Counted from the first letter of the stretch, positions 13,097 through 56,698 are shown. The stretch: DNA of 64,000 nucleotides from an uncultured Clostridia bacterium (GCA_944383685.1 CALWQM010000015.1:57570-121569), one strand, 5' to 3'. Numbers and translations are program-made. The notes: generated by a model from the letters alone, not told the origin.

Positions 13097-14836
13097 TTAT
13101 TTTGCATATTTTTTATAAACAAATTTTGTTAAATAATAATTGATTGGTAAAATCACAAGTAATGCATAAATTGGAACTAAAATTGAGGTTAAATATTGAA
13201 CCATTGTTTCTGCTTGCATGCCACAACAAATGTTAATAACAAAAACGATAACACTTGCCAAAATGAAGACGGCCCAATTAGTTATTGCATTATATCTTTG
13301 TGTTGCCTTTCGACTTACTGTGCATTTATATTGTATTAATGAGATAATAACATAAATTAAAAACAATGCTGGAATGGTGTAAAATAAGAAATTCGACGAA
13401 GCCATTAAATGATTTGTTCCGCTAATTATTCCGTAAAAAATAGCACAGCCTACACCAACTAATCCGAACAAAATTACTGAGATAATAAGATTTAAAAGAT
13501 TTGTGTTATGAACTCTTTGAACATAAGTCCTTTTATATTCTTTAAATTCAATTCCGCGTTCATGATAATAACCCTTCAATGATTCAAAATCTGCAAAGGA
13601 GACAACAGGCTGAGCTTTTTGAGCATAGTAGGTTGCTTTCTGTTCAACATTAGGAGAACTTTGAATTTGCTTACTTGCAATTTCCTTTTCCTTCTTCTTT
13701 TCGTTGATTTTTGACATCATGTCTGTATAAGTTGGTTCCAAATTTGAATCTCTTATCGGTGCAGGCAAGTTATCATCCGAAACATTGATTTCAATATTTG
13801 GAGGAGTGATTTTTCTTTGATATGGAATATGTTCATCAGCAATTTTTGGCTCGGTAATTAAAACTGCGTCATCTTTTTCTTCTACAATTTGTTTTTTATC
13901 TTCAAAAATTGGTGTTGAAACCCTATTGGTTTGTATGAACTGCGCTTCATTTTGTTGAGGTTTAAGATAAATTCCATCATCTTTATTTACTGAATTTTCA
14001 GTTTCTTCTTTTTTATTAAACAAATTTGCATAAACACTTCTATCAAAATTGTTTTGCTTTGTTTGGAGTATGGACTCTTTTAAGCTTTGAATTTTAGATT
14101 TAAAATCTTCATCATTTGGCTTTTGTTCATAAACAACTGACATTTCAATTTGATTGTCTGAAAAGCTTTTTCTATTCCTATATTTTTTTAATTCGCTTGA
14201 AGTGTCATACAATTTTTTGTTTTGCTCAATTTGATAAGGGGTGAGGGTTTCATTTTCGTTTAAAAATTTTGCATCATCCTTTTTAGGTTCTTCCTTTTCA
14301 AAACTGAAAACATCCTTATTGGCACTTTCTTGTTTTTCAGGTTGTTCATAAGAAAAGAAATCAATTTGGTTATCTGCAACTTCTGGTGTATCTTCTTTTG
14401 GAACTGGTTTTTCTTCTTGTTTAGGTTGTTTTGCATAATCAAACAAATTTTTTTGTTCCAGAAAGATTGGTTTATGTTCAAAATCACTCTCACTTGTTTC
14501 AATGTTAGTTTCAAATTCCACTTCTTTGTTTTCATCAGCAGAGAAAGAAATATTTTTAAATTCCTTAGCAAGCAAATTTAAACTTTCCTTTCCTTCATCT
14601 GTGAGGGCATAATAATGGCGTTTTCCACCAAATTCACTTTCTCCCCAAAAGGAAGAAGAAACAAGGCCTTTTTTTTCTAGTCTTGTTAAGCACGAATAAA
14701 GAGTCGGCTTTTTAAGGATATAGCCGCCATTTGTTTTTTTAGCAATAAATTCAATAATTTCCAAACCATATTTTGAACCGTCTGCAAGCGAATCAAGGAT
14801 AAGATATTGGACTTGACCATTGGAATTAAATGCCAT
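13097..14836 (-). CDS. PadR-family winged-helix regulator fused to a long low-complexity linker and a C-terminal 4-TM domain
   Basis: ATG at 14836 follows an AGGAGG SD. The N-terminus YLILDSLADGSKYGLEIIEFI...LYSCLTRLEKKGLV...KRHYYALTDEG is PadR-like. About 340 aa are E/K/Q/N-rich, then come four hydrophobic helices. Confidence 0.7.
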   Translation of the reverse strand: MAFNSNGQVQYLILDSLADGSKYGLEIIEFIAKKTNGGYILKKPTLYSCLTRLEKKGLVSSSFWGESEFGGKRHYYALTDEGKESLNLLAKEFKNISFSADENKEVEFETNIETSESDFEHKPIFLEQKNLFDYAKQPKQEEKPVPKEDTPEVADNQIDFFSYEQPEKQESANKDVFSFEKEEPKKDDAKFLNENETLTPYQIEQNKKLYDTSSELKKYRNRKSFSDNQIEMSVVYEQKPNDEDFKSKIQSLKESILQTKQNNFDRSVYANLFNKKEETENSVNKDDGIYLKPQQNEAQFIQTNRVSTPIFEDKKQIVEEKDDAVLITEPKIADEHIPYQRKITPPNIEINVSDDNLPAPIRDSNLEPTYTDMMSKINEKKKEKEIASKQIQSSPNVEQKATYYAQKAQPVVSFADFESLKGYYHERGIEFKEYKRTYVQRVHNTNLLNLIISVILFGLVGVGCAIFYGIISGTNHLMASSNFLFYTIPALFLIYVIISLIQYKCTVSRKATQRYNAITNWAVFILASVIVFVINICCGMQAETMVQYLTSILVPIYALLVILPINYYLTKFVYKKYAK

Positions 14837-14904
14837 ATTTCCTCCTAAACCCTTTCTTATAATTAAATTATAAATCTTATAAATATATTTGTCAAACAAA
14901 ATTT

Positions 14905-14965
14905 CATAGTATTATGCAAAAAATTTTAATTGCATAACACCACAATATATAGTGTAATATGCCAT
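14905..14965. repeat. Palindromic intergenic repeat family, copy A
   Basis: ATAGTATTATGCA...TGCATAACACCACAATATATAGTGTAATATGCCAT. The 14-mer CACAATATATAGTG (14941..14954) is identical to 55366..55379. Confidence 0.6.
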
Positions 14966-15037
14966 AAATTTTAACATATCTAGTCATATTAGAAAAATTA
15001 TCTATTTAGTTTATTGATTGATAATTTAAGTTTTTGT

Positions 15038-17225: not shown

Positions 17226-18272
17226 ATGAAAACTTTATCATACTTTGAAAAAAGGGACTTAGTCAATATGGAAAAAATTGGAAGTTATCTCAGCGAACTT
17301 CCAGAGTATTGTTATGACTTTTTCACAGGTATTGAAATTACCACTTCAAGTTTGACACGTTTGAATTATGCAATGGATTTATCCATCTTTTTTGACTATA
17401 TTTCAAAGTTCATTTTAAAAAAGGACAAAAAAGAAATCACATTAAAAGATTTGGACACTCTTGAAGCGAGAGATATTGAAAGTTATTTGTCATATCTCAC
17501 CTTTTATAAAGTTGATGATAAAGCTTTTAAAAATACAGAAAATGGGAAGGCAAGAAAACTTGCAAGTGTGAGAAGTTTTTTTAAATATCTTTTCAACCAT
17601 GATTTAATAAGCAAAAATGTTGTCAGCAAAGTTCCAACTCCAAAACTTCACAACAAGGGTATTATTAGGTTGGAGGGGAATGAAATTGAGAAAATGCTTG
17701 ATGCAGTGAATGACCCAACAACATTCACACAAAGACAGAAAAATTACAACAAAAACACAAGAATACGTGATAATGCTATTGTCACACTTTTTCTTGGAAC
17801 GGGCATAAGAGTTAGCGAGCTTGTTGGACTTAATGTGGAAGATTTTGATTTTTCACAAAATGCCTTTAAAGTGACAAGAAAAGGTGGAAATCAAACAATA
17901 CTTTACTATCCAAATGAAGTTAAGTACGCAGTTGAAGAATGGCTTACAATTCGCAAAACACTTCCAATAAATGAAGATGAGCACGCATTATTCCTTTCTT
18001 TGCAAAACAGGCGCATTTGCACAAGGGCGGTTGAAAATCTTGTGAAAAAGTTTGCAAGGGAAAGCACGCCACTGAAAAATATTTCACCTCACAAACTTCG
18101 TTCAACCTTTGGCACAAATTTGTATAGGGAAACAAATGACATCTATATTGTTGCTGATGTTTTGGGGCATAAGGATGTTAACACAACCAAAAAACACTAT
18201 GCGGCAATAAGTGAAGATATGCGTAAAGGTGTTGCCAAAAAGGTGAAAATTGGCAACAGCAATTTTGATTGA
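17226..18272 (+). CDS. Tyrosine site-specific recombinase, Xer family (XerS-like architecture)
   Basis: 348 aa. Catalytic-region motifs are GIRVSELVGL, VTRKGGN, HKLRSTFGTNLY and LGHKDVNTTKKHY (R..H-R-H..Y). The N-terminal half (LPEYCYDFF...SSLTRLNYAMDLSIFFDYI) resembles streptococcal XerS from memory. Confidence 0.75.
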   Translation: MKTLSYFEKRDLVNMEKIGSYLSELPEYCYDFFTGIEITTSSLTRLNYAMDLSIFFDYISKFILKKDKKEITLKDLDTLEARDIESYLSYLTFYKVDDKAFKNTENGKARKLASVRSFFKYLFNHDLISKNVVSKVPTPKLHNKGIIRLEGNEIEKMLDAVNDPTTFTQRQKNYNKNTRIRDNAIVTLFLGTGIRVSELVGLNVEDFDFSQNAFKVTRKGGNQTILYYPNEVKYAVEEWLTIRKTLPINEDEHALFLSLQNRRICTRAVENLVKKFARESTPLKNISPHKLRSTFGTNLYRETNDIYIVADVLGHKDVNTTKKHYAAISEDMRKGVAKKVKIGNSNFD

Positions 18273-18289: not shown

Positions 18290-18354
18290 TGCATACTTGT
18301 TAAAATACCCAAATATAGTGTATTATGTTATGCATACCACACCACAATTTGTGT
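18290..18354. repeat. Palindromic intergenic repeat family, copy B
   Basis: TGCATACTTGT...AAATATAGTGTATTATGTTATGCATACCACACCACAATTTGTG, starting 18 nt after the recombinase stop. Confidence 0.55.
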
Positions 18355-18750
18355 TTTGCTATAACTTTAAATTTTTCAATTTGTTATAATATTAATGGGC
18401 TACATGGTGCTAATTTTTGATTATTTTAAAATTTAGCATTTTGAGTATTTAATGAATACAGTAAGTAAACATTATGAGCAAAATTGCAAATAAATTTCCT
18501 TAAATTATGATTTTCAATATAAAAAATCTGCATTTAGACAGCAAAAGACAAAATTCGACATTAAACTTAAAAAGTTTTTTGTCATTATGTTTGCATTTTA
18601 TAAAAAAATGTGCTAATATAACATATAGTACTTTTGACTAACTACATTATCTTATTTGTAAAATTGTAATTTTGTTAAATTTTCATTTTATTTTTATGAT
18701 ATCCCTGGTTATTTAAAGGTAAAATTTACTTAAAGAAAAGAGGAAAAATT

Positions 18751-27120: not shown

Positions 27121-28311
27121 TTGAAGTCTGTAAACTTAGATTTAAAATTAAACAAAAGACTTATTAAAATTGTTGGCGGTGGACTTACTGGGATTGAAAC
27201 TGCATATATTTGTGCAAAAAACGGATACAGGGTTCACATCTTTAACAAGCCTCAAAATGAACTCACATATTTTGACAAAGAAGAACCTTTTGCAAATATT
27301 TTGCAAGAGGAACTTTTTAATTTTTCAAGCCCTACATATTTAACAAGCCAAAGGATGGGCGAAAATATATTGAAACTTGATAAAAATTTTATTGGCCTTA
27401 TGCGTGAAAAACTTAAAGAATTTCCAAATGTTTCATATATTGAAAGCGAAATTGACGAATTAAATCCAAGAGAAATAACTTTGCTTGCAACAGGAAATAA
27501 CACCACAAACAAACTTTTAGATGATTTAACAAAATATATTGGCGAAAGAAAAATTCAGTATTATAGCCCTGGCGAAATTGCCTTTAAAAACATTAAAGAA
27601 GAAAATTTGTTTCATGATAAAGATAATAACTATCATTTAAATTTAACAGAAAGCGAATATGCCATATTAAAAAACAAGATGTGTAAATTTTTAAATGATT
27701 ATGAAGTTAACAATCTTTTGGGTCAACAAATAAGCGGGGAAAGTCTTGCAAGAAATGAAGCATTAAGAACAGCAATATTTAGACCGATATATAATGAAAA
27801 TTGCAAAGCTTATGCCTCGCTTAAATTGCGAAAACATGAAGATATTTATTATTTAACTGAATTTTTCACAGCCCTTTCAAATGAGGAACAAAAGGAAATT
27901 TTCAGTGGTATATCTGCTCTTGACGGTGCAGAATTTGTAAACTTTGGAAAAATATATAAAAGGACTTATCTTTCAAGTGCAATGTGCGTAAACAACTTTT
28001 TACAATTTAAAAATGAAGAAAACTTTTTTGTCTGTGGCGGACTTTTAGGGGTGGAAGGTGTTATGGAAAGCCTGCTCACCGCAAATTACGTGGCTTATAA
28101 CCTTATGAACATGGCAGAGGGAAAGCCTTTGCAAGAAATTACCAATTTTTCATGCACAAAACTTCTAATAGATAAATTATTACAAAAAAATGTGTTAAAT
28201 CATAGGCTTTTAAGTTTTGACTATGATATAATAAATGATGAGAATGGCAAAAATATAGATACTTCTGCCGTTCTTAAATTTAAAGAAAAATTTTATGGAA
28301 AGTATTTTTAA
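27121..28311 (+). CDS. Divergent TrmFO/Gid-like flavoprotein (probable loss of catalytic cysteines)
   Basis: TTG start follows a GAGGTG SD. VGGGLTGIETA dinucleotide-binding motif and FFVCGGLLGVEGVMES (compare FFAGQ.TGVEGYVES). Position after topA matches trmFO; see findings for the missing Cys motifs. Confidence 0.55.
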   Translation: MKSVNLDLKLNKRLIKIVGGGLTGIETAYICAKNGYRVHIFNKPQNELTYFDKEEPFANILQEELFNFSSPTYLTSQRMGENILKLDKNFIGLMREKLKEFPNVSYIESEIDELNPREITLLATGNNTTNKLLDDLTKYIGERKIQYYSPGEIAFKNIKEENLFHDKDNNYHLNLTESEYAILKNKMCKFLNDYEVNNLLGQQISGESLARNEALRTAIFRPIYNENCKAYASLKLRKHEDIYYLTEFFTALSNEEQKEIFSGISALDGAEFVNFGKIYKRTYLSSAMCVNNFLQFKNEENFFVCGGLLGVEGVMESLLTANYVAYNLMNMAEGKPLQEITNFSCTKLLIDKLLQKNVLNHRLLSFDYDIINDENGKNIDTSAVLKFKEKFYGKYF

Positions 28312-28381
28312 GGATAAAGTGCTTTAAACAAAACTTTTTCAAAAATAAAAATAATTTCAATTTATAAAAGTGAGGATAAGA

Positions 28382-29686
28382 ATGAACTATACACCAAAAC
28401 AAATTGTCAGCGAACTTGATAAATATATTGTGGGACAAGCAAAGGCAAAAAGGGCGGTTGCTGTTGCATTAAGAAATCGTTATCGCCGTTCTCATTTGCC
28501 AGAAGAAATAAGAGATGAAATAACACCAAAAAACATCATCATGAGTGGGCCAACAGGTGTTGGTAAAACAGAGATTGCAAGACGTCTTGCTAAACTTGTG
28601 GGCGCACCTTTTGTTAAAGTTGAAGCGACCAAATACACCGAAGTTGGATATGTTGGCCGTGATGTTGAAAGCATGGTAAGAGATTTGGTTGAAGTTGCTG
28701 TTAGAATGGTTAAGGATAAAAAGAAAAAAGATGTTGAAGATAAGGTTATGCCAATTGTTGAACAAAAACTTATTGATGCACTTTTCCAAAATAGACGTGT
28801 CACAACTTTGGAAGTTAAAAGAGAAGATTTGGAAAATGAACTTCACAGCAATAAATTTGAAGATGAAATTATTGAAGTTTCCGTGCTTGACAGCCCAAAA
28901 CCAATTATGGCATTTGGAAGTGGTGAAATCAATTTGGGCTCTATGTTCGACAGCCTTCAACCACCAAAGCACAAAAAGAAGAAGATGAGTGTGCGTCATG
29001 CCAGAGACCTCTTACTTCAAGAAGAAACAGAAAAAATCATTGATATGGATAATGTCAATGAAGAAGCCATTTCACTTGCAGAAGAACAAGGTATTATTTT
29101 CATTGATGAAATCGATAAAATTATTGGAAAAAGCCAAGCAACAAGCAGTGCTGACGTTTCAAGAGAGGGGGTTCAAAGAGATATTCTTCCAATTGTTGAA
29201 GGAAGCACTGTGCCAACCAAATATGGCAATGTTAAAACAGATTTCATTCTTTTCATCGCAGCAGGGGCTTTCCATTTGGCTAAAATGGAAGATATGATTC
29301 CAGAACTTCAAGGTCGTTTTCCAATTAGAGTCAGCCTTGAAAGTTTAACTCAAAAAGACTTCAAGCAAATATTAACAGCACCAAAAAATGCGGTAACCTT
29401 GCAATATGCCAACCTTTTGAAGGTTGATAATATTGACCTAAAATTCACTGATGATGCACTTGACGAAATTGCCACAATTGCTGCAAATGAAAACGAAATT
29501 GAAGATTTGGGAGCAAGACGTCTTCACACAATTATGGAATTGCTTTTGGAAGATATTTCTTTCAATGCAACTGGGGAACATCCAATGACAACAGTTGAGA
29601 TTGACAGAACTTATGTTCAAAAAGCTTATAAAGATAAAAGTAAGCGTGCTACCGAAAAAATTAAAATGGGCTTTAGGGCTTCTTAA
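28382..29686 (+). CDS. hslU: HslU (ClpY) AAA+ ATPase, without an adjacent hslV
   Basis: ATG at 28382 follows a [57 protein letters not shown] and [10 protein letters not shown] motifs. Confidence 0.85.
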
Positions 29687-32592: not shown

Positions 32593-32963
32593 ATTTCAAA
32601 TTTTTTGGGGTGGTAGTTTACTTAAAAATTTTCATACATAAAATTATTAATTATGTAATTTATACTGGCTGGTGGTATGGTTTAATTTTATATAATAAAT
32701 TTTGTTCTAAAATGCGTTCACATACACGGAATAATTAAACTTTTAAAATTTTCCTTGAATTTAACATTATTATACAAAGATGAAAATTTCATAGTAGTAT
32801 GCATAAATATACATAAATTTAGACTCAAATATTTTTTAAATTTAGTTAAATCTTGTTTTAAACTTACAGAAAGAATAAATAAAATGTTTATAAAAATTAT
32901 GTCAATCACATTAATAAAAAAGTTAGAAGAAAACATCAATAATATTTAATTATTATGAGCTAA

Positions 32964-33125
32964 GGTATTATGCGCATAATACCACAATATTTTGTTTAAA
33001 ATTATGTGATAATACACCATATTTTGAATATCTATTCGCAAAACCTGTCTTTTGCGAATAGATTGTAAACCACTTTTAATCATAATCACCCAATTTTTTA
33101 CATAAATAAGCCCACATTTTTTATT
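32964..33125. repeat. Repeat array flanking the candidate dif
   Basis: Perfect 20-bp palindrome GGTATTATGCGCATAATACC (32964..32983). Four same-orientation ~20-bp units, consensus roughly CATAATACCACAATATTTT: 32972..32993, 33006..33025, 33079..33099, 33100..33122. Confidence 0.5.
33030..33063. other. Candidate chromosome dimer resolution site (dif-like 14-6-14 perfect palindrome)
   Basis: ATCTATTCGCAAAA CCTGTC TTTTGCGAATAGAT. It is 530 and 330 nt from the nearest gene ends, has no flanking U-tract, and sits in the convergent strand-switch gap. Confidence 0.5.
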
Positions 33126-33377
33126 TAGTTTTAGAGCAAATTTAACCAAAAATCACATGACTTTTGAAGAATTTTTTCTTAATTTACCCTATAAAAATTT
33201 CGTATAAAAGCAGCAATTTTTATTTAAAATTTATTGCATAAAATTTACAAAATATAAATAATTATAAATTTATATTTGATCGCCCACTAAATTTGATTGT
33301 AAAATGACATGACATCTAGCCCACCCTGCACCCCATTTTTTAAAAAGGAGGTATTTATCCTAGAATTTAAATAAAAG

Positions 33378-33405
33378 AAAGATAAGTCTTTACTTATCTT
33401 TTTTT
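33378..33405. terminator. Bidirectional terminator at the IMPase gene stop
   Basis: AAAGATAAGT / ACTTATCTTT stem with T-runs on both strands. The stop codon lies in the loop. Confidence 0.55.
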
Positions 33406-41258: not shown

Positions 41259-41270
41259 ACATACCTCTCA

Positions 41271-41328
41271 CTATATGTTGTGTAGTATTCATGCATACTA
41301 CAATATATATTGCGTCATAACACAATAA
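41271..41328. repeat. Palindromic intergenic repeat family, copy D
   Basis: CTATATGTTGTGTAGTATTCATGCATACTACAATATATATTGCGTCATAACACAATAA fills the ruvA-ruvB spacer. Confidence 0.5.
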
Positions 41329-42640: not shown

Positions 42641-45600
42641 TTACCAGATAAATTCATCTTGACAACTTGAACATTTTAATTCACCAGCATGGCAATGTTC
42701 ACCCAAACTTATGTCATTGTTACCTAGAAATTTGTCAGCATTTGTATAACATTTTGTTATAAATGATGTGTCATTTGAATTTATATTTCCAGCAAAACCG
42801 CCAACACTTAGGTCATCATCACTTGTAGAACTATCACTAGCATTATTAATTATACTAATATTACCTTTTGAATAACAAATTGTAATATTATATGAAGAAT
42901 CAGTATTTTCAATAACACCAGCAAATCCACCAAAATTCATCGGTGTTTCTGTATAAAGATTAGAAATTTCTCCCCCATTTCTTAATAGCAAAGCTTCGTT
43001 AACATTATCATCTTTTACATAAGTTCTTAAACTATCCGCTTCTATCACAAAAATTTGATTATTACTTTTATTATTAGTGTTAACAACAACACTGCAATTA
43101 TAATTTCCAACTCTTGTGAAATTAGAATTATTTGAATATCCAACAACTGCCCCAACATTAGCAAAACCTTCAACATTACCACTCATGATTGTTAAATTTT
43201 TTATGGTTGCATTTTCTGTGTAACCAAAAAGTCCAATGTTGTTTAAATTTGATTCGCTGATATTCAAATTATAAATTGAATAATATTGACCATCATAATA
43301 TCCCTTAAAAGGACTTTGCTCCGTTCCAATAGGAAGCATATTGTTTTGAAGTGTTGTTTTTTCGTTAACTAATGGGTCATCTGGGAAAACAATATCACAG
43401 GTTTGTTTAAATCTCTCTCCTTCAAAAGTGTTACCCATGATTGTTGTTTGATAAAGCATCCAATACAAATCGCTATAAGAATCTATTATATAGGTGTTTC
43501 CTTGTTTTTCAGGATTAATGATATCAAGATTTTCATCACTTAATGACTCTATTTCCATAGAAAGCATATAGTAAACATCAATATTAATTACATTTGACTC
43601 GGCATTATTGGTGATTACTTGAAAGTCAAAAGTTCCAGATTTAGATAGCTGTTCACCATTACAATAAATGCCATAATATGTCATAAATCTGTTAATACCA
43701 TCATGGTTAATACCATCATACACAATTTGATCTAAATAATTATAAAATTTTTGTATATCTAGATTGATTTTTGAATATGCTTTAACATTTTCAAACGTAT
43801 ACATTTTATAAAGATCTTTTGAAACTGCATTTTTTGAATTATATGTAGGTTCATTGCCAAGAATAGAAACATTATAAGAATTTTCTGAACCTTTAACAGT
43901 GTCAATATCTGCAATTCCCATCAAGGTAAATTTATTTTTAGCACTATCATAAGAATCAGCAAAGTAAAGGTTAAAGTTAATATCATAACTTTGTAAACTA
44001 TAATATGAATAGAAAAGCATTGAATTGTAATTGGTTGCATTACTTTGCATTACTTCGTCATTGCCGTTTACAAGGGCATCAGTATAGTAAGAATAAAGTT
44101 GATATTTATCAAAGTAACTTCCTGCATAACCGCTTGTTGAGAATGTATTTGCAAAATCTACAAAAGAATTTTCATCGTCTGCGGACTTTTCAGTTTCATT
44201 TGCGAAATAACCAAGATTTGGAGTTTTTGTTACACCACTTAAAACTCCTTTTTTTATTATTTCTTCGCCTGAATCAAGAGTTTCTTTCCAAGTACTAAAA
44301 TATAAATCTTTTCCCTGCCCGTCTTTTGGTTCTGCATTTGCTGGATTATACCCACTTCCTGCAAATGGATTGGTTTTGTCAAAATTAAATTCATAGAAGA
44401 ATGTAAGTTTAAATTCAAAACCTTCAACAGAACTTGTGTCAAGTTTAATATATTTATTATCTTTGGATTTATCTTGGTCAGTAATTTGCCCTGCCTTAAT
44501 AGTTCCATCATCTTCAATTGCAAGATAAAGGTCGTCTCTCTTTGTTGAATCATTAGAATTTATTGGAATTATTGTGTAAGTGGTAATATCGCCAACACTA
44601 TTTGAAATAGAATTAAAATTATGCTCGCCATTTTTATCTGTTTCATTCCAAATATCTAAATTTCCGCCACTGCTTCCAATATGATAAACACCTTCTGCAT
44701 CTTCATAAACATCTGCAAAATAGTAATAATAAGACCTATATTCTGCCCCTCTATTTAATGTAGGATTTACACTAAATTCTTCAAAATGGATATTAATAGC
44801 TAAACCATCATTTACATTTAAATTTCCATTTTTTGTTCCTAATTCTTCAAATTGGTATAAGTCCAAGGTCAAGTAAATCATACCTTCACTTGGGTTTGGT
44901 TGCTTATCACTCTCAAAAGTGATAAAACCATTTTGAGTTGGAATAAAATCATCACTTGAAGATATTTTAAAGTTATCAAATGTAAAACCAGCTGTTCCAC
45001 CCCAAGCGAAAGATTTGTTATAATCATTCGTTTCATTTGACCCCTTTCTATCAAGAGTTACATTGCCAACATAATGAGAATAATATCCATCAAAGAAATT
45101 ACTCCCACTATTTTTTAATTGTGCTCCAATTTTGAGCTGAGCACTTTGATTTCCATTTGCACTGAATGAAGTAGTATTCGCCGTGTTACCACTTGTTCCG
45201 TATTCTATATTCCTAAAAACAATATCTTCGCCATGACTTTGATAAGCCCGTCCACTATAACCATAATTTACAGTAATAGTCCCCAATCCTGGATTGCCCT
45301 CAGTTCCTTCTGTAAAATTATTATTTTCGTCGCTTTCTAACTTATAGTTAATTTTAATACCACTATACTGATAGCGAACAAAAACTGCGGTAAGTGTTGT
45401 GCCAGATGTTATCTTATTTGTATTAAATGTGTATGTAATTACTCCACCATTATTTTTAAGATCCTCTGCTTTAATTGACGATGTGCTTACTTCATAATTG
45501 AGGTTATCAATAGATACAATGGATGCATCTGCAGAACTGAAAAATTTATCACCAATAAATAAACCAAAAACTTCATAATTTTCATTTGGTTTTAACGAAA

Positions 45601-47662
45601 CAGAAATATTGTATTTTCCAGCAAGCCCACTAATTGTGATACTTTCTTTATTGTTGTTTTCATTGTCTATAAATTCGTTGACATTAGAAGCTTCCGCAGA
45701 AACTGCACTGATATAACCACCTTCTGTGCCAATCTCAGTTTCAAAAGAAGAAGGTTCAACATAAAATTGGTTTGCATATTTAACATTAACAGTGTAACTT
45801 ATTGCATTTCTATCAAAAACCGCAACAATGTTTTGAATACTAGAATTATAGGTTCCACCATCCTCAGTATATAAATAAATATTATCACTTAGAGGATCGC
45901 CACTATAATTACCTCTACTATTATATCTATACCATCCTTTAAATGAATATGAACTATTAACCGTCCTTGAACACAAACTCATATTAGTATTTGTTGTTTT
46001 AAAGAAATATAAGGTTACAGAACTGTTGGTGGTAACAGAACTTGCTTTTGCTCCATTTCTAAAATATACTGACCCAGCTTCTCCACTCATTGAACTTGTT
46101 GTCCCTGAATCGGCAGTTTGGTCATAAACATAAGCATTTCCGCCATCTTTATCTATATTCTTGGTTTGAATGCCAACATTAATATCCTCAAGCCAATAGG
46201 AAAGAACTAATTTCCCTTCAATAACATCTTCATCTGTCCCAAAATCAACATAGGACCATGTCCTACTTTTATCAGTTGAGCTATAATCAAAGTTACTTAA
46301 ATATCTAGTATCAATATCTATATTACTTAATGACGATATTTTGCTATTATTATTTACTGTTCCAGCCTTAGTTGTTCCATAAAGGTTGTTTCCAGTGTAA
46401 TAACAATTATTGATATTTCCTCTATTCCAGCCAACTATTGAACCAACTCTTTCAGTGCCACCACCTTTAATTTTGCCAACATTAATACAATAAGTAACAT
46501 TTTGGTCACCATTATCGGATCCACCATAACCAGACTGTCCAACAATACCACCAGTAACAGTGTCACCAGTAGACCTTCCCCCAACATCACCATAGTTAAT
46601 GCAATGGTCAACATCCGCCCCCTCTTCAAGAGAGCCTACAATACCACCAGTAAATTTAACTGAGCTGCTTATTTTTCCATAATTAATACAATTCGATATT
46701 TGACTATCTCGTTTGGCAAAACCAACAAATCCACCAACTTTTTCGGAAACATTTTCTCCTGAACGAGTTATATTGCCCAAATTCATGCAGTTATCTATAT
46801 CAACATTTCCACCATCTGTAAAGCCAACAAAACCACCCATCCATGTTTCCCAGCCAAAATTAGAAGAATCACATTTGATGTTAATTTTATTAACACAATT
46901 TTCAATTTTAACAGTGCCCCCAGTCACCCTGGAAACAAATGCTCCATAAACACCTTCATAAGATGATGAAATATTGCCGTCTAACATCAAATTTTTTATA
47001 GTGCAACCATCAGAATGCCCAATTAAACCAATAAATCTTCCAGATTGAAGTCCTAAAAATCCTGTTCCATAATGATAACGTCCTTCATTATCTCTATTTA
47101 CATCAATTGTCAACCCAGAAATAATATGACCTCTACCATCAATTATTCCTTTAAAATTTCTTATAGGCATCCAATAATGAGCAGAAAGGTCAATATTTTC
47201 TTGAATATAGATTGTCCTACCCTCATATGTATTACCCTTTTCAATTGAATTATAAGCAATGCCTGCTAAGTCTTGGGCATTATAAATATAATATCCAACA
47301 TTTGCATCATAATTTCCACTATCTGTCCAATAGCCTGATGCTTGACTTGAAACTTCATCGTTATCGTCATCAGTTTCACCATTACCTACGTCACCATCTG
47401 GCGAGCTTGGACTTTGAGTATTATCCTCATTTTTTTCATCATCACTTGGTGAAGAAGTTGAACCATTTTCACCATTATCAACATTTTCGCTGTCGTCTAA
47501 ACTTTCATTGTCACTGTCAATGGTATCTTCAACAGAGGTTTGAGGTAAAAGAGCAGCATAATTATATATATTAATTGAACACAAACAAAGTATTGCTGTG
47601 AATAAAACACATGCAAATGACATTAAGAATTTTTGATTAAACTTCTTATTTTTCATTTTCAT
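42641..47662 (-). CDS. Giant secreted/surface protein (1673 aa) with GLUG-like repeat modules
   Basis: Signal peptide, acidic D/E/S/N-rich spacer, and a GG[FI]VG-repeat module preceded by Y.NAQDLAGIA...ENIDLS..W.PI..F.G..DG.GH.ISGL. This architecture matches the 8228 gene. It continues with a long N/S/T/Y-rich region holding F.GW-type repeats and a second GLUG-like module near the C-terminus. Confidence 0.8.
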   Translation of the reverse strand: MKMKNKKFNQKFLMSFACVLFTAILCLCSINIYNYAALLPQTSVEDTIDSDNESLDDSENVDNGENGSTSSPSDDEKNEDNTQSPSSPDGDVGNGETDDDNDEVSSQASGYWTDSGNYDANVGYYIYNAQDLAGIAYNSIEKGNTYEGRTIYIQENIDLSAHYWMPIRNFKGIIDGRGHIISGLTIDVNRDNEGRYHYGTGFLGLQSGRFIGLIGHSDGCTIKNLMLDGNISSSYEGVYGAFVSRVTGGTVKIENCVNKINIKCDSSNFGWETWMGGFVGFTDGGNVDIDNCMNLGNITRSGENVSEKVGGFVGFAKRDSQISNCINYGKISSSVKFTGGIVGSLEEGADVDHCINYGDVGGRSTGDTVTGGIVGQSGYGGSDNGDQNVTYCINVGKIKGGGTERVGSIVGWNRGNINNCYYTGNNLYGTTKAGTVNNNSKISSLSNIDIDTRYLSNFDYSSTDKSRTWSYVDFGTDEDVIEGKLVLSYWLEDINVGIQTKNIDKDGGNAYVYDQTADSGTTSSMSGEAGSVYFRNGAKASSVTTNSSVTLYFFKTTNTNMSLCSRTVNSSYSFKGWYRYNSRGNYSGDPLSDNIYLYTEDGGTYNSSIQNIVAVFDRNAISYTVNVKYANQFYVEPSSFETEIGTEGGYISAVSAEASNVNEFIDNENNNKESITISGLAGKYNISVSLKPNENYEVFGLFIGDKFFSSADASIVSIDNLNYEVSTSSIKAEDLKNNGGVITYTFNTNKITSGTTLTAVFVRYQYSGIKINYKLESDENNNFTEGTEGNPGLGTITVNYGYSGRAYQSHGEDIVFRNIEYGTSGNTANTTSFSANGNQSAQLKIGAQLKNSGSNFFDGYYSHYVGNVTLDRKGSNETNDYNKSFAWGGTAGFTFDNFKISSSDDFIPTQNGFITFESDKQPNPSEGMIYLTLDLYQFEELGTKNGNLNVNDGLAINIHFEEFSVNPTLNRGAEYRSYYYYFADVYEDAEGVYHIGSSGGNLDIWNETDKNGEHNFNSISNSVGDITTYTIIPINSNDSTKRDDLYLAIEDDGTIKAGQITDQDKSKDNKYIKLDTSSVEGFEFKLTFFYEFNFDKTNPFAGSGYNPANAEPKDGQGKDLYFSTWKETLDSGEEIIKKGVLSGVTKTPNLGYFANETEKSADDENSFVDFANTFSTSGYAGSYFDKYQLYSYYTDALVNGNDEVMQSNATNYNSMLFYSYYSLQSYDINFNLYFADSYDSAKNKFTLMGIADIDTVKGSENSYNVSILGNEPTYNSKNAVSKDLYKMYTFENVKAYSKINLDIQKFYNYLDQIVYDGINHDGINRFMTYYGIYCNGEQLSKSGTFDFQVITNNAESNVINIDVYYMLSMEIESLSDENLDIINPEKQGNTYIIDSYSDLYWMLYQTTIMGNTFEGERFKQTCDIVFPDDPLVNEKTTLQNNMLPIGTEQSPFKGYYDGQYYSIYNLNISESNLNNIGLFGYTENATIKNLTIMSGNVEGFANVGAVVGYSNNSNFTRVGNYNCSVVVNTNNKSNNQIFVIEADSLRTYVKDDNVNEALLLRNGGEISNLYTETPMNFGGFAGVIENTDSSYNITICYSKGNISIINNASDSSTSDDDLSVGGFAGNINSNDTSFITKCYTNADKFLGNNDISLGEHCHAGELKCSSCQDEFIW

Positions 47663-47943: not shown

Positions 47944-49602
47944 TTATTTTTCTTCCAATAACTTTTTTGCATGAGTTATTGCAGTTTGGGAAACTTTTTC
48001 ATTGCCGTCAATAAGGCCGGCAATTTGATTTATGACTTCATCCCCATCAATACTTGCTGCATTTGAAATTGTTTCACCATTTTTGCTTTCTTTTGTAACT
48101 AAGATGAAAGCATCTCCCTTGCTTGCAACAACTGGTGTGTGAGTTATGCAAATAACTTGAATATAGTCAGCAATCTTATTAAGCTTTAAGGCAACTTTTC
48201 CAGCTGTTTGCCCACTTATACCTGAATCTATCTCGTCAAAAACCACAGTCGATGTGTTTTCTTTATCAAGCATAATGCTTTTAAATGCCAAAAGTAATCT
48301 TGAAAGTTCACCGCCTGACGCAGTTTTAGACAAATCTTTCATTTCTTGACCTTCGTTTGCAGAGAAAACAAATTTAACAGCATCAAAACCTTTTTTCCCA
48401 ATTTCGCACCTATCAAAGTCAACCTTGAAATTTGTTCCTTTCATTTGAAGGTCGTTGAGTTCTTCCTTAACTTTATCTTCCAAAATGATGGCATTTTTCT
48501 TTCTTAAAGCAGAAAGTTTTTCACAAAGTCCTTCCAGCTCTTTCAAGCAGTTTTCTTTTTTCTTATTTAACTTTTCCAAAGCAAATTCACTGTTTTCTAA
48601 ATCGTCTAATCTCTTTTTTGCATTTGCACAAAATTCAAGGATTGCATCAATGCTTTTACCATATTTACGCTTTAAATTTTTAATTAAATCCAATCTTGCG
48701 TCAATTCTTTCAAGTTCAGTTGGGTCAAAATCTGTGCTTCTTAAAACATTTTCCAACACATCAACAATATCTTTAATTTCATAATAGGCACTTGTCAGCC
48801 TCTCTTGGCAATTTGCAAGCTCTTGAAATTCTAAAAGGGAATTAAGTTCTTTTTTGGCATCATAAATGTTGTTCGTAACTGATTCAGTGTTTTGGTCAAG
48901 TTTTTGCAAAGCAAACTCAACTTTTTCAACAATATTTTCAGCTGATGAAATAAACTTGAACCTTTCATTTAACTCTTCCTCTTCGCCAGAAACCAAATTT
49001 GCATTATCAATTTCATCAATTTGAAATTGTAAAATCTCTTTTAAGCGGTTTCTTTCAGCATCATCTCCACCAAGGTTTTTAATTTCCTTGTTGATTTCAG
49101 CAAGTTCGTCGCATTTGCCTTCAATTTGATTTAAATATGAATACGCGTCATTTCCAATAAACTTATCCAAAATAGACAAATGATTATTCACATTAATAAG
49201 CCCCACATTGTCATGCTGGCCACAAAAATCCATCAACTTTTCGGTGATTTCTTTAAAGGTTTTAAGCACAACCACACAGCCATTAACTCTTATAACGCTT
49301 TTTCCGTCACTGTTCAGCGTTCTTGACAAAACAAGTTCACCATCAAAATCAATTCCAAGGTCGTTTAAAACATTGACAACATTTTGGCTTACATCATCAA
49401 AAACAGCATCAACACGCATAAGGTTCTCATTAGTTCTTAAAAGTGTTTTATCAGCCTTTGCGCCAAGCACAAAACTTAGTGCATCAATCAAAATGCTTTT
49501 ACCAGCGCCAGATTGCCCTAAAATGACATTAAAGCCTTTTTTAAAATTAACTTCACATTTTTTTATTAAAGCTAAGTTTGAAATAAAAAGAGAAGAAAGC
49601 AT
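47944..49602 (-). CDS. recN: DNA repair protein RecN
   Basis: 552 aa with GQSGAGKSI Walker A, long coiled coils, an ASGGELSR signature and VVFDEIDSG. Confidence 0.95.
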   Translation of the reverse strand: MLSSLFISNLALIKKCEVNFKKGFNVILGQSGAGKSILIDALSFVLGAKADKTLLRTNENLMRVDAVFDDVSQNVVNVLNDLGIDFDGELVLSRTLNSDGKSVIRVNGCVVVLKTFKEITEKLMDFCGQHDNVGLINVNNHLSILDKFIGNDAYSYLNQIEGKCDELAEINKEIKNLGGDDAERNRLKEILQFQIDEIDNANLVSGEEEELNERFKFISSAENIVEKVEFALQKLDQNTESVTNNIYDAKKELNSLLEFQELANCQERLTSAYYEIKDIVDVLENVLRSTDFDPTELERIDARLDLIKNLKRKYGKSIDAILEFCANAKKRLDDLENSEFALEKLNKKKENCLKELEGLCEKLSALRKKNAIILEDKVKEELNDLQMKGTNFKVDFDRCEIGKKGFDAVKFVFSANEGQEMKDLSKTASGGELSRLLLAFKSIMLDKENTSTVVFDEIDSGISGQTAGKVALKLNKIADYIQVICITHTPVVASKGDAFILVTKESKNGETISNAASIDGDEVINQIAGLIDGNEKVSQTAITHAKKLLEEK

Positions 49603-49612
49603 AACTCCCTCC

Positions 49613-50065
49613 TTAATTTAAAATATTATTTAAAGTAACAACAGCCTCACTTGAAAGAGCAGTTGAAGGAAACACCAAAAGCACAGTGTCATCACCATAA
49701 GTTGTACCCATAAGGTCAATGAGGTTTAACTTATCAATAAAAGATGCAACACTTCCGCCCATGCCTTTAATGGTTTTGATAACAGCAAGGTTTAAAGCAT
49801 TTTTCACAGAAATAACCGATTCTTTAAAAATGGTTATGTATTTACTTGAAACAGCCTGTTGCTCAGTGCCCAAAATGGCATACTTATATTTGCCAGTTGA
49901 GGACAAAATTTTTGTAAGCCCAAGCTCTTTAATATCACGAGAAATTGTTGCTTGCGTGATATCAAAATTGGCATTTTTAAGCTCTTTTGCAAGCTCATCC
50001 TGCGTTTCAATCTCTTTAATTGAGATAAGTTCAAGTATTTTTGATTGTCTTGCACTTCTTGCCAT
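49613..50065 (-). CDS. argR: Arginine repressor
   Basis: 150 aa with TQATISRDIKELGL wHTH and a C-terminal GTTYGDDTVLLV oligomerisation/arginine-binding region. Upstream of recN, as in Bacillus ahrC-recN. Confidence 0.9.
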   Translation of the reverse strand: MARSARQSKILELISIKEIETQDELAKELKNANFDITQATISRDIKELGLTKILSSTGKYKYAILGTEQQAVSSKYITIFKESVISVKNALNLAVIKTIKGMGGSVASFIDKLNLIDLMGTTYGDDTVLLVFPSTALSSEAVVTLNNILN

Positions 50066-50117
50066 AACAACACTCCTTAAAGCCTAAACGCCCCTAAAAT
50101 ACGCACTTGTGGGCCTT

Positions 50118-50135
50118 TATGCATAATTATGAATT
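50118..50135. promoter_or_regulatory. ARG box 1 (in argR 5' UTR)
   Basis: TATGCATAATTATGAATT compared with the consensus TNTGAATWWWWATTCANW: 4 mismatches at the 16 defined positions. Confidence 0.45.
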
Positions 50136-50160
50136 TATAAAAATTCATTGATTTTTCATT

Positions 50161-50189
50161 ATTATACAATAAAATTAATAAATATGCAA
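50161..50189 (-). promoter_or_regulatory. Promoter of argR-recN
   Basis: On the - strand: TTGCAT (50189..50184), 17-nt spacer, TATAAT (50166..50161). Confidence 0.55.
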
Positions 50190-50196
50190 GTGAATT

Positions 50197-50214
50197 TATG
50201 CATATTTATTCATT
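50197..50214. promoter_or_regulatory. ARG box 2 (just upstream of the argR -35)
   Basis: TATGCATATTTATTCATT compared with TNTGAATWWWWATTCANW: one mismatch at the 16 defined positions. Confidence 0.5.
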
Positions 50215-50556
50215 AATTTTTTATAAATATTTTAATGATTGAAAGATTATAAATTATGAAAAGAATAAAAATAACCAAATATACAAAAGTAGCACGTGGT
50301 AAATACTAAAACTACGCTTAAAACAGAGTGTGATAATCTCATAAATTTGATAATCAAAAGAGAACTTATAATAAAAAAATTAAATTAGAATATATAATTT
50401 AAAAAACTTGAAAGGTGTAAACTGCCCCCTCCTTACTCAAAAGATGCAAAAATGCATTTTAACAGAAAAGATTTATAATGCTTGCTTTTAATATAAAAAC
50501 ACTTATAACCAAAATTTACGATGACATCTCGTAGATTTTTTATTTGTCTTTTAATG

Positions 50557-51714
50557 TTATTCTCTTGTTAAAACAATTTCCTCCTGGTTACTTAATGCAA
50601 CATCCACAAGGTTTTCGATATTCAAAAACTTCTCTTGATATTCAGCCTTTTTGATGGTTGGCTTAATAACAGGATATTTTGGCAAAAACACTGTGCAACA
50701 ATCTTCATAAGGCAAAATTGATGTTTCAAAAGTTCCAATCTTTTCAGCAACTTCAACAATATCTTCCTTATCAAAAGCAATAACTGGCCTAAACACAGGA
50801 AGTGAAACAACTGAATTTGTGACATTGATGCTTTGCATAGTTTGGCTTGCAACCTGCCCAAGGCTCTCCCCTGTTATAATCGCCCCAAGGTCATTTTGAT
50901 TACAAATTTTTTCTGCAATGCGCATCATTATTCTTCTCATGATTGTTATCATATACTCTGAGTCACAATTCATGTGAATTTGCTCCTGAATTTTGGTGAA
51001 AGAAACAATATGCAGTTTAATTTCGTCACAATACTCACAAAGTTCTTTGGCAAGAGTGATAACCTTTTCTTTTGCCTGTTCACTTGTGTAAGGATATGAA
51101 TGGAAATGAACAGCCTCAATCTTTAAACCACGCTTTGCCATAAGATATCCTGCAACAGGACTGTCAATTCCGCCTGAAAGTAACAATAATGCTTTCCCCG
51201 CTGAACCAAGAGGAAGCCCGCCAGCACATTTTATGGTTTCATAGTAAACATAGGCAAGGTCATTAAATCTAACCTCAACATTCACATGATATTTTGGATT
51301 ATGTAAATCAACTTCTGCTTCTTTGTTGTTTTCAAGAATAACCGCCCCAAGTTCTCTTTCAAGTTCCATGGAAGAAAGAGGAAATTTTTTATCAGCACGC
51401 TTAGCATTAACCCTAAATGTCCCTGAAATTTTTATTGTTGAAACAAAATTAAATATTTCGTCTTTATCAGCTTTAAGTTCTGTTGCCTTGGAAACACCAA
51501 TAAGTCCAAAAACGGTGGTAAGCCTTTTTACAATCATGTCTTCTTCAAACTCATCATAATCACTTATCACAATTCTTCCCATAGGAAAAGCGAGCTTAAA
51601 ACTAAAATCAGCAAGTTTTTTTCTTATATTTCCAACAAGCAAATTTTCAAAATCTTTTTTGTTTTTTCCTTTTAAAAAAAGCTCTCCAAATTTTAACAAT
51701 AAAACCTTTTTCAT
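50557..51714 (-). CDS. thiI: tRNA 4-thiouridine synthase ThiI
   Basis: 385 aa with a THUMP region and an LLLSGGIDSPVAGY PP-loop. Confidence 0.9.
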   Translation of the reverse strand: MKKVLLLKFGELFLKGKNKKDFENLLVGNIRKKLADFSFKLAFPMGRIVISDYDEFEEDMIVKRLTTVFGLIGVSKATELKADKDEIFNFVSTIKISGTFRVNAKRADKKFPLSSMELERELGAVILENNKEAEVDLHNPKYHVNVEVRFNDLAYVYYETIKCAGGLPLGSAGKALLLLSGGIDSPVAGYLMAKRGLKIEAVHFHSYPYTSEQAKEKVITLAKELCEYCDEIKLHIVSFTKIQEQIHMNCDSEYMITIMRRIMMRIAEKICNQNDLGAIITGESLGQVASQTMQSINVTNSVVSLPVFRPVIAFDKEDIVEVAEKIGTFETSILPYEDCCTVFLPKYPVIKPTIKKAEYQEKFLNIENLVDVALSNQEEIVLTRE

Positions 51715-52835: not shown

Positions 52836-52867
52836 ATTCCTTCCTTTATCTTGTGCAAAAATCAAAA

Positions 52868-55267: not shown

Positions 55268-55357
55268 AATTTTTTCCTAACCTTTTAAATCATATTTTTT
55301 CAACAATCTTTTACTATTTCTATAATTTTTTGATTACCATCAATTATAATTCTTATA

Positions 55358-55405
55358 TCATACTACACAATATATAGTGTATTATGCATTGCATATCACC
55401 ACATA
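55358..55405. repeat. Palindromic intergenic repeat family, copy C
   Basis: CATACTACACAATATATAGTGTATTATGCATTGCATATCACCACATATT abuts the pheS stop inside the pheS-pheT spacer. Confidence 0.6.
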
Positions 55406-56425
55406 TTAACGCATTTGTTTCAAAAATCTTAAATCGTTTCTATAAAGATATTTAATGTTTGGTATTTTGTTTGTAACCATAACACTTCTATCTATGCCTG
55501 GGCCAAACGCAAAGCCGGAATATTTTTTGCTGTCAATTCCAGACATTTCCAAAACTTTTGGATTAACAACCCCAGCACCAAACACTTCACTGAACCCTGA
55601 ACCCTTGCAAAGCGAGCAACCTTTACCACCACACATTTGGCAAGTTGCATCAATTTCAATAGATGGTTCTGTGAATGGGAAATATGATGGTCTAACTCTC
55701 ATTTTCACATCTTCGCCAAACAATTTTTTAAGAATGACATCAATCATTTTCATCAAATCTTTAAGCCCAATATTTTCGTCCACAACAAGTGCTTCAAATT
55801 GGTTGAAAATTGGAGAGTGAGAACTGTCATCATCATTTCTATAAACCCTGCCAGGACAAACAATCTTGAATGGTGGTTTCATTTTTTCCATTGCGTGAAC
55901 TTGCATGTTTGAAGTTTGTGTTCTTAAAACTATGTTGTCAGTGATATATAAAGAGTCTTGCATATCTCTTGCTGGATGGTTTTTAGGGACATTCAAAGCC
56001 TCAAAGTTATAGTAATCTGTGTCAATTTCAGGTCCTTGAATAACAGTGAAACCCATTGCCACGCAGATATCCATAAACTTATTATTAAATTTTGTGAGAG
56101 GATGCAACGCACCCTTTTTAACACCAACACCTGGCATGGTGATGTCAACTTTTTCTTTTTCCATTTCAATTTCAAGTTGTCTTTCTTCAAGAGCTGCAAG
56201 CTTATCACTTAAAGCTTTTTCAAGCTTTTCACGAACAACATTTGCAAGCATTCCAACATTTTTCCTTTCTTCTGCTGGAATTTCTTTCATGTTTCTTAAA
56301 ATTGCAGTAAGTTCACCTTGCTTACCCAAAAACCTAACCCTAACATCATCAAGTGCTTTAAGGTCGACACATTTTTCAATTTGTTCTAAACCATTTTTTA
56401 AGATTAAATCAAGTTTTTCTTTCAT
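55406..56425 (-). CDS. pheS: Phenylalanyl-tRNA synthetase alpha subunit
   Basis: ATG at 56425 follows an AAGGAGAGAGG SD. HPARDMQDS, FRNDDDSSHSP-like motif 2 and GFAFGPGIDR motif 3. The longer track ORF runs into the T-box terminator. Confidence 0.95.
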   Translation of the reverse strand: MKEKLDLILKNGLEQIEKCVDLKALDDVRVRFLGKQGELTAILRNMKEIPAEERKNVGMLANVVREKLEKALSDKLAALEERQLEIEMEKEKVDITMPGVGVKKGALHPLTKFNNKFMDICVAMGFTVIQGPEIDTDYYNFEALNVPKNHPARDMQDSLYITDNIVLRTQTSNMQVHAMEKMKPPFKIVCPGRVYRNDDDSSHSPIFNQFEALVVDENIGLKDLMKMIDVILKKLFGEDVKMRVRPSYFPFTEPSIEIDATCQMCGGKGCSLCKGSGFSEVFGAGVVNPKVLEMSGIDSKKYSGFAFGPGIDRSVMVTNKIPNIKYLYRNDLRFLKQMR

Positions 56426-56429
56426 ACCT

Positions 56430-56698
56430 CTCTCCTTAAAAAAATAAAATCGCCCTAAAATATTAGGACGATTAAAATAAACCGTGGTACCACCTAACTT
56501 CATGCTTTAAACAAGCACCTTAATTAAAGTAATTACGCCTACTTTGCGACAAACCCTACGCAAAATTTGTTTAACCAAATTTCTTCAAGTCTGCAACTAG
56601 AAAGTGAATTCATCACACCATTTCTACCCCTTTTCAGCAACCGAGGCTCTCTGTAAGAAATTAAATATGATTACTGGTCTTTCATCATCGTTTTTATA
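56430..56698 (-). promoter_or_regulatory. T-box leader (Phe specifier) of pheS
   Basis: On the - strand: AGAGAG box, candidate specifier GAA-UUC-A (UUC at + coordinates 56606..56608), conserved T-box AAGUUAGGUGGUACCACGGU (56481..56500), then the terminator. Confidence 0.85.
56441..56473 (-). terminator. T-box terminator hairpin
   Basis: AAUCGUCCUAA / UUAGGGCGAUU stem (one G-U pair), followed by UUUAUUUUUUU, directly before the pheS SD. Confidence 0.7.

Follow-up and report, generated by a model that had tools for sequence, protein, structure and literature searches.

We analysed 64,000 nucleotides of DNA from an uncultured Clostridia bacterium (GCA_944383685.1, CALWQM010000015.1:57570-121569), hereafter called the window. 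Our subject is a chromosomal Xer recombination site, dif, and the short repeated units that adjoin it. The window has a G+C content of 31%. Its GC skew is positive as far as about 32-33 kb and negative beyond, and the cumulative skew peaks there. At this point two sets of convergent genes are separated by a non-coding gap of 888 bp. On the plus strand, iscS-iscU ends at position 32502; on the minus strand, a suhB-like gene and pfkB begin at position 33390. A 34-bp palindrome, dif, is located mid-gap. Immediately to the left is a module of two units, each with a TGCATAAT-type motif followed by a 16-bp box that resembles those recognised by the regulator NrdR. The coordinates of all features are collected in Table 1. 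Note that an earlier, sequence-only reading of this DNA had embedded dif in an array of four same-orientation units (U1 to U4), two on each side, together with a perfect 20-bp palindrome. All four strings, and the palindrome, are present where that reading had put them. An Rfam scan found no RNA family at the dif locus; the sole match in the window was a T-box at 56.5 kb.

The 34-bp palindrome has two arms, inverted around a short centre, and sits at the switch in GC skew, as a dif-type site should. A Xer-type tyrosine recombinase, presumed to act at dif, is encoded 15 kb away; the xer gene thus lacks the adjacency to its site that is typical of XerS and XerH modules. The top NCBIfam match of the protein, over its full length, was XerS (NF003462), with a score of 183.5 bits that falls below the curated cutoff of 267. 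Homologues, 76-87% identical, occur across related species.

Use of dif in vivo is apparent in one strain, where a microvirus has integrated and the junction is in the dif centre. In the contig concerned (L009), homology to the window ends with ...CGCAAAACCTGTCTTT, within the 34-mer; beyond this point lie genes of a microvirus (L009 4952-6342). They encode a Phage_ORF5 protein, a tiny basic DNA-binding protein and a holin-like protein. The scaffolding protein is 80% identical to that of Microvirus mar32. The free mar32 genome, in turn, has the sequence ATCTATGCGTAAAA-CCTGTC-TTTGTGAAATTGTT in an intergenic gap, and AACTATTCGCAAAA-CCTGTG-TTTTAAAAGTGTTT is found in bajarodmic virus 527. In both sites the left arm is good, the centre agrees wholly or almost wholly with that of dif, and the right arm is degenerate. 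This is the classical attP layout of elements that integrate via host Xer proteins, and the left arm of dif is the arm that such phages need. It would be an instance of Xer-mediated lysogeny by Microviridae, in a host that belongs to the Clostridia and has a XerS-like recombinase. Scans of viral contigs gave no match to the attL junction and a single match to the attP pattern, which was high in G+C and unrelated. Because the microvirus junction in one strain falls within the palindrome, and free microviruses carry matching attP sites, we conclude that the 34-bp palindrome is the functional Xer recombination site of this chromosome.

Exact-protein look-up of IscU yielded nine strain-level contigs with the same gene order as the window. 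Their intergenic DNA is nearly identical, all four units included. Hence, comparison at the strain level cannot discriminate between units. The sequence-only reading had proposed a search among strains for insertions or deletions bounded by the units. The nine contigs differ, within the left module, by a few single bases and, on reading the alignment, the six critical box positions described below are unaffected. More distant comparisons were made with contigs of five related species, found via SuhB homologues of 69, 63, 57, 52 and 51% identity. The resulting set of six gut Clostridia species consists of the window and contigs L020, L022, L023, L026 and L027. A SuhB scan of the reference-genome collection reached no close relative, its sole match being a Pseudomonadales protein with 26% identity. 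Note that the chromosomal DNA covered here is terminus-proximal.

In the six-species alignment, dif and the left module align, and the remaining intergenic DNA is unalignable. The conserved module comprises U1 and U2, spans about 56 bp (32974-33029), is found to the left of dif only, and has a fixed register in all six species. In each case box 2 abuts dif identically, with its last base immediately before the left arm. After dif, the most conserved segment is the first TGCATAAT motif (Table 1). In contig L022 the left neighbour of dif is recN, not iscU, and still module and dif are found together. We take the module to be under selection together with dif. The sequence-only reading had asked for conservation of the region among relatives that keep the 34-bp palindrome; this was found for the left module, kept in five species, and not for the right side, where identity is about 0.35. 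A separate observation concerns the rearrangement itself. In the closest related species (contigs L017, L018, L019 and L022, compared with window positions 47944-56503), recN-argR-thiI-nifS-pheT-pheS lies directly left of dif and replaces iscSU. The breakpoint is just outside the block of module plus dif.

Table 1. Features of the dif locus and related sites elsewhere in the window. Positions are those of the window unless a virus is named; identity is the mean pairwise value over six species.
Feature	Position	Strand	Identity	Remarks
Left flank			0.36	
Motif-only unit, TGCATACTACTATGAAATTTTCATC (also TGCATACTACTATGAAATTTTC)	32779..32803	-		230 bp left of dif; no NrdR-type box; 12.0 bits
Inverted TGCATAAT motif copy	32964..32973	-	0.65	no box; left half of 20-bp palindrome
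First TGCATAAT-type motif (CGCATAATA)	32973..32981	+	0.92 (32974-32981)	directly 5' of box 1; right half of 20-bp palindrome
NrdR-type box 1, CCACAATATTTTGTTT	32982..32997		0.74	3' part of unit 1 (U1); 6/6 critical positions
Linker, AAAATTATGTGATAAT	32998..33013		0.59	16 bp
Second TGCATAAT-like motif (GTGATAAT)	33006-33013			3' end of linker
NrdR-type box 2, ACACCATATTTTGAAT	33014..33029		0.75	3' part of unit 2 (U2); 6/6 in six species
dif core	33030..33063		0.98	34 bp; longest palindrome in window
dif left arm, ATCTATTCGCAAAA	33030-33043			14 bp
dif asymmetric centre, CCTGTC	33044-33049			6 bp
dif right arm, TTTTGCGAATAGAT	33050-33063			14 bp
U3 and U4	33079-33099 and 33100-33122		0.35	
Right flank			0.35	
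Double-box site A	14940..14986			6/6 + 5/6, 31-bp spacing; further TGCATAAT units at 14894-14963; upstream of padR-like gene
Xer-type tyrosine recombinase	17226..18272	+		348 residues; Pfam Phage_integrase, E 1e-33
Weaker inverted unit pair	18300..18360			just downstream of xer gene; 12.1 + 11.9 bits
Double-box site F	41268..41315			between ruvA and ruvB; 6/6 + 5/6, 16-bp palindromic linker
Double-box site B	55365..55411			between pheS and pheT; box 1 ACACAATATATAGTGT 6/6, box 2 5/6, 31-bp spacing
attP-like site, free gut microvirus	L082 (MZ089778.1) 3760-3793			
attP-like site, free gut microvirus	L084 (PQ006699.1) 3675-3708			

The 20-bp palindrome, GGTATTATGCGCATAATACC (32964-32983), is perfect and unique: no second match was found in the window at up to three mismatches, and none like it arose in 100 shuffles. 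Its inverted half directly adjoins the direct copy in the window and in L022 (with one mismatch), is 9 bp away in L020 and L023, and is absent next to dif in L026 and L027. Four of the six species therefore have an inverted half, and we regard the perfect palindrome as lineage-specific. The units themselves were scored using a 25-nt matrix, trained solely on dif-flanking units of three other species. In the window, U1 and U2 scored 25.6 and 19.6 bits respectively. Sites with scores of at least 19 bits numbered five, compared to 0.015 expected from 200 block shuffles. Similarly, the half-site 9-mer GCATAATAC has five exact copies in the window and 0.4 were expected. This bears out the suggestion, made by the sequence-only reading, that the units share a half-site with a dispersed family.

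The right-hand units behaved differently. U3 scored 3.6 bits and U4 scored 4.9 bits, and 141 and 85 sites in the window, respectively, score as high or higher. Looser echoes of the units, claimed at about 33285 and 33319-33341, reached at most 6 bits and are background. Reading of the sequence shows that U3 and U4 are without a critical G, at box position 13, and that 21 bp, not 31-32 bp, separate their box-like cores. No counterpart was found in the five other species that keep dif, and identity across U3 and U4 is at the level of the right flank. Furthermore, a gap-free repeat search paired CACAATATTTTG with CACCATATTTTG, 32 bp apart, and CACCCAATTTTTTA with CACCCCATTTTTTA; this gives little support to a four-unit array. 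It is true that all four strings exist and are conserved among strains of the same species. In addition, U3 is four mismatches from the 19-mer consensus of the sequence-only reading, and seven such sites occur where 1.5 are expected. Even so, we think it very improbable that the units on both sides of dif form one array of accessory sites. We regard U3, U4 and the echoes as chance look-alikes that play no part in the module. What stands of the array is its left half, U1 and U2.

What U3, U4 and the echoes have in common is the string CCCA..TTTTTT, the reverse complement of an A-run plus GGG. This fits a general polarity, with respect to strand, of G-runs toward dif. In the window, GGG points toward dif 508 times and away 112 times. 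For GGGG the counts are 118 and 6, and for [GT]GGG[TCG]G they are 54 and 0. Close to dif, in the 500 bp to either side, the counts for GGG are 11 toward and 0 away. Polar G-runs are present on both sides of dif and are seen most densely at 32600-32620 and 33087-33342. The polarity could reflect a motif that guides FtsK or SpoIIIE, a signal not separable here from coding-strand bias. A reading of the right-hand G-rich motifs (on the minus strand) as akin to FtsK orienting polar sequences was rejected for the same reason: the k-mer skew is dominated by coding-strand bias and no specific motif could be isolated.

The sequence-only reading had also considered that the units are scars, left as elements inserted repeatedly at dif. 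One part of this holds, since dif itself hosts a microvirus in one strain. Stray dif half-sites also exist. Specifically, extra inverted copies of ATCTATTCGTAAAA are found near the iscU end in two related species (L020 4045-4058 and L023 10928-10941), 330-460 bp from the real dif, whereas the window has none. Earlier integrations may have left them behind, or they may be sites bound by the recombinase only. However, the units resemble neither the dif arms nor the flanks of phage attP sites, and the attP regions of mar32 and bajarodmic virus 527 have no such units. The register is the same in six species and stable among nine strains, and the same module occurs at ruvB, pheT and padR-like loci, remote from dif. 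That the units are integration scars is hardly credible.

We now turn to what the module resembles. NrdR is described as specific to ribonucleotide reductase (RNR) genes and there are usually 1-3 NrdR sites per genome. The boxes normally overlap RNA polymerase binding sites and, in the case of Listeria nrdDG, box 2 is 13 bp from the start codon. The operator consists of two partially palindromic 16-bp boxes, in which C4 and G13 are separated by 8 bp and the centre between them is AT-rich (at least 63%) (PMC13584703). Six of the positions show high conservation: C4, A6, A8, T9, T11 and G13 (PMC13584703; PMC12051234). The boxes are separated by a linker of 15-16 bp (PMC13584703; PMC12051234), with 14-17 bp tolerated; according to the literature, the linker sequence is unimportant. 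Binding needs both boxes and bends the DNA sharply (PMC13584703; PMC12051234). NrdR binds as a tetramer.

The pair of boxes adjacent to dif matches all 12 critical positions in six species, with box starts 32 bp apart and hence a 16-bp linker. Across the 12 boxes of these species, the invariant positions are 4, 6, 8, 9, 11 and 13. Conversely, positions 5, 7 and 10 vary, just as they do in published NrdR boxes. By count, at least seven of the eight inner positions are A or T in all 12 boxes. Counting each strand, eight matches in the window have at least 11 of the 12 critical positions (four sites, both strands) and 0.84 were expected; two match at all 12, and 0.033 were expected. The putative operator next to dif has every sequence feature published for NrdR. 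Other candidates were compared with the module by eye and rejected, because motif order or spacing did not fit. These were forespore sigma F/G promoters, the DnaA box, and sites for Fur/PerR/Zur, IHF, CodY, LexA, Crp/Fnr and Ter/RTP.

Related sites are dispersed through the window, with copies at about 6.58, 14.9, 18.3, 41.3 and 55.4 kb. Several are double-box sites held at the same gene junctions in other species. The layout of site A is the same in contigs L024 and L066. At site F, the start codon of ruvB comes 5 nt after the end of box 2, and orthologous sites between ruvA and ruvB are found in L022, L023 and L026. Site B, between pheS and pheT, has orthologous sites in L022, L036 and L070. 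The weaker pair downstream of xer has a counterpart in L025 (6/6 + 6/6, 33-bp spacing) and none in L024. In the double sites, the presence of TGCATAAT before each box makes the linker palindromic. A metagenome scan, using a pattern of TGCATAAT plus box, identified further copies 5-35 nt upstream of the ribosome-binding sites of pheT, thiF-like and nifS-like genes. The order of box, ribosome-binding site and ATG at the dispersed copies resembles that at Listeria nrdDG. Since copies are kept at orthologous gene junctions, the dispersed modules are best read as sites of a regulator, not as mobile repeats or insertion scars. Mobile palindromes, of the repetitive extragenic palindromic or miniature inverted-repeat type, were rejected on the same grounds, with copies held in place between species whose SuhB proteins are 51-69% identical. 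The motif-only unit 230 bp left of dif shares its subtype with the unit next to the promoter of the padR-like gene and with the units in an intergenic region of L027 (a pair at L027 11287). At 6575-6600, a head-to-head TGCATAAT pair lies within an open reading frame (ORF) for a SpoU methylase (6343-7065). It has no equivalent at the corresponding place in L024 and, for this reason, is probably not functional.

The padR-like gene next to site A raises the possibility of a different binding protein. This gene (13097-14836, minus strand) encodes 579 residues, with an N-terminal winged helix-turn-helix domain of PadR type and 4-5 C-terminal transmembrane helices. The linker between them, of about 330 residues, is disordered and rich in acidic and lysine residues. 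We predict the protein to be a membrane-anchored DNA binder. Its gene has a TTGACA-17-TATAAT promoter, and three TGCATAAT units plus a double box are found just upstream (14837-14986). Such a protein, rather than NrdR, might bind TATGCA/TGCATA half-sites at the module and either tether terminus DNA to the membrane or regulate genes, the NrdR-like boxes being secondary. The strongest three-unit cluster is indeed just upstream of the canonical promoter of its own gene, in the window, L024 and L066, a layout typical of autoregulation. Moreover, no part of the module is better conserved than TGCATAAT, which is also found without boxes, and the PadR-family protein AphA recognises ATATGCA-N6-TGCATAT (PMC3440409). 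Against this, head-to-head motifs are spaced by anything from about -2 to 14 bp at different sites, and by 0 to 9 bp at orthologous dif loci, which misfits a rigid dimer; a rigid AphA-type dimer site was rejected on this basis. The inverted half is missing next to dif in two species, as noted above, and L025 has family sites and no padR-like gene at the syntenic place. Importantly, the NrdR-critical positions and their 32-bp phasing are left unaccounted for. We therefore keep a binder other than NrdR as a minor rival, and a rather improbable one.

Chief among the rivals is the idea that the module is a promoter and operator, controlled by a repressor, that happens to face dif. Here, CATAAT within TGCATAAT would be the -10 element, and the boxes would cover the transcription start. 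Transcription into or across dif would then produce a non-coding RNA, perhaps a checkpoint RNA like Rcd, or modulate access of Xer, and the function would lie there rather than in architectural contact with the recombinase. In favour of this explanation, every unit adjoining dif is oriented toward it. At other loci (ruvB, pheT, thiF-like and nifS-like genes) the unit precedes a ribosome-binding site and ATG by 5-35 nt, as though the promoter were within it, and overlap with RNA polymerase sites is typical of NrdR boxes. There is also the precedent of Pcer and Rcd, with a promoter inside a Xer site (PMC4393325). However, the module has no -35 element, whereas clear sigma-A promoters of this organism read TTGACA-17-TATAAT or TAAAAT. 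A promoter scan was negative at the module and gave six matches in the region, with 9.3 expected. A plain sigma-A promoter was rejected for these reasons. The second -10-like hexamer differs between species (CATGTT, CATATC, CATACC) and, downstream of dif, an identity of 0.35 indicates no conserved RNA or ORF past the dif hairpin. Finally, several family copies are within operons, where a promoter is unneeded. Overall, we view a promoter facing dif as possible and unlikely.

Our preferred explanation, held tentatively, is that the module is a one-sided site for an accessory or gatekeeper protein next to dif. A sequence-specific protein that bends DNA would occupy the module. The top candidate is NrdR or another protein that reads the same code, perhaps together with a partner at TGCATAAT. 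Since box 2 runs up to the last base before the left arm, with no spacer, the bound protein would have to contact the recombinase there or compete with it for the arm. The left arm is also the presumed start of FtsK-independent exchange. Acting from one side, the protein may thus assist or gate synapsis and strand exchange at dif, as well as the integration of phages. If NrdR is what binds, occupancy should follow the dATP/ATP state of the cell. The sequence-only reading had likewise suggested accessory-protein sites of the sort present at cer and psi. That idea survives for the left module, conserved with dif in six species and related to modules elsewhere, and not for the right-hand units and echoes.

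A more specific version names NrdR itself. In this scheme the lineage would have co-opted NrdR, a nucleotide-sensing repressor, to serve chromosomal dif as accessory or gatekeeper, and NrdR would bend DNA beside the arm at which exchange starts. Dimer resolution would be tied to the dATP/ATP (replication) state, as would the integration and excision of microviruses, and genes outside RNR such as ruvB and pheT would also be under NrdR control. We consider this full version doubtful.

Several observations weigh against an accessory site bound by NrdR. Chromosomal dif is normally controlled by FtsK and not by accessory DNA, and the module is small (about 56-66 bp compared to about 180 bp in cer). 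We infer an accessory role in recombination from sequence. The location is also unexpected: the neighbours of the dif-adjacent boxes are iscU and suhB, not the promoter of an RNR operon or nrdR. Pfam scans found no nrd gene, nrdR or ATP-cone protein among the large ORFs of the window. Similarly, the 694 kb of fetched DNA yielded no match to E. coli NrdR in tblastn, and none to the glycyl-radical motif of NrdD. At least four double-box sites occur in 64 kb, in a family known here from terminus-proximal DNA alone. Lastly, the conserved TGCATAAT flank is outside the published NrdR site, whose linker sequence is free, and the motif is also found without a box (at 14894 and 32779, and in L024 and L027). 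A second or different protein may be involved at this flank.

Other features of the window can be described briefly. It contains spoIVB, rny and a T-box leader. On the minus strand, an ORF of 1673 residues (42641-47662) matches no Pfam family at E <= 1e-6; L022 has one of 1667 residues in the corresponding position. At 27121-29686, trmFO is followed directly by hslU, without a gene for the protease subunit, hslV. In L026 and L027, unlike the window, a Proteasome-family hslV adjoins hslU.

Chromosomal dif is thought to need its core and FtsK alone, and accessory DNA is seen as a speciality of plasmids. A protein-binding module kept in constant register against chromosomal dif in six species would provide the first natural indication that chromosome-dimer resolution is under accessory control. 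Should NrdR be the binder, dimer resolution would be linked to the deoxyribonucleotide pool. The view of NrdR as a regulator of RNR genes only would be challenged, and NrdR would be a wider regulator. In addition, the locus defines what appears to be a new pair of XerS-like recombinase and dif in Clostridia, one that gut microviruses would exploit.

Compared with known NrdR operators, the module at dif has the same C4, A6, A8, T9, T11 and G13, the same 8 bp between C4 and G13, an AT-rich centre and a 16-bp linker. Dispersed copies place box 2 just upstream of a ribosome-binding site and ATG, as at Listeria nrdDG. The differences are in context. The dif module adjoins a recombination site, and the copies precede ruvB, pheT and a padR-like gene, with no nrd gene beside them. 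Each box here has a conserved TGCATAAT flank, where the published linker is free in sequence. There are at least four sites per 64 kb, rather than a few per genome, and binding is a prediction.

In cer and psi, the accessory sites directly adjoin the arm of FtsK-independent first strand exchange (the XerC arm). The module is similarly beside the presumed first-exchange arm, which in our case we identify from phage attP sites that copy that arm alone. The regulator sites, for ArgR and PepA in cer and for ArcA and PepA in psi, lie to a single side of the Xer core (PMC5357621). These are sites of regulators that also act elsewhere and, in the same way, our module flanks one arm of the core on one side, here the left. 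Conversely, the dif module is chromosomal rather than plasmid-borne, shorter, made of other motifs presumably for other proteins, and paired with a single XerS-like recombinase. The accessory sequences of cer and psi are required for recombination and impose resolution selectivity. As with Pcer and Rcd, a regulatory element would be beside a Xer core, here with neither a -35 element nor a conserved RNA.

The core itself can be set beside XerS/difSL of streptococci and lactococci, and XerH/difH of Helicobacter and Campylobacter. The recombinase is likewise about 350 residues and closest to the XerS profile, the site is at the terminus, and the arms end ...AAAA / TTTT... around a short centre. 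Note that difSL is 31 bp with an 11-bp centre, and the dif described here is a perfect 14-bp inverted repeat with a 6-bp centre. Unlike these systems, xer is 15 kb from its site and not adjacent, the XerS score is below the curated cutoff, and there is a conserved flanking module. The microvirus at the dif centre, with an attP of one good arm, identical centre and degenerate second arm, follows integrative mobile elements exploiting Xer, such as CTX, TLC and gokushovirus prophages. This likeness concerns the dif core and not the units, and it is found here in a Clostridia lineage whose Xer system is XerS-like. Taken together, an NrdR-type operator outside an RNR context, and a chromosomal dif with one-sided DNA of accessory type, would be new variants of known systems.

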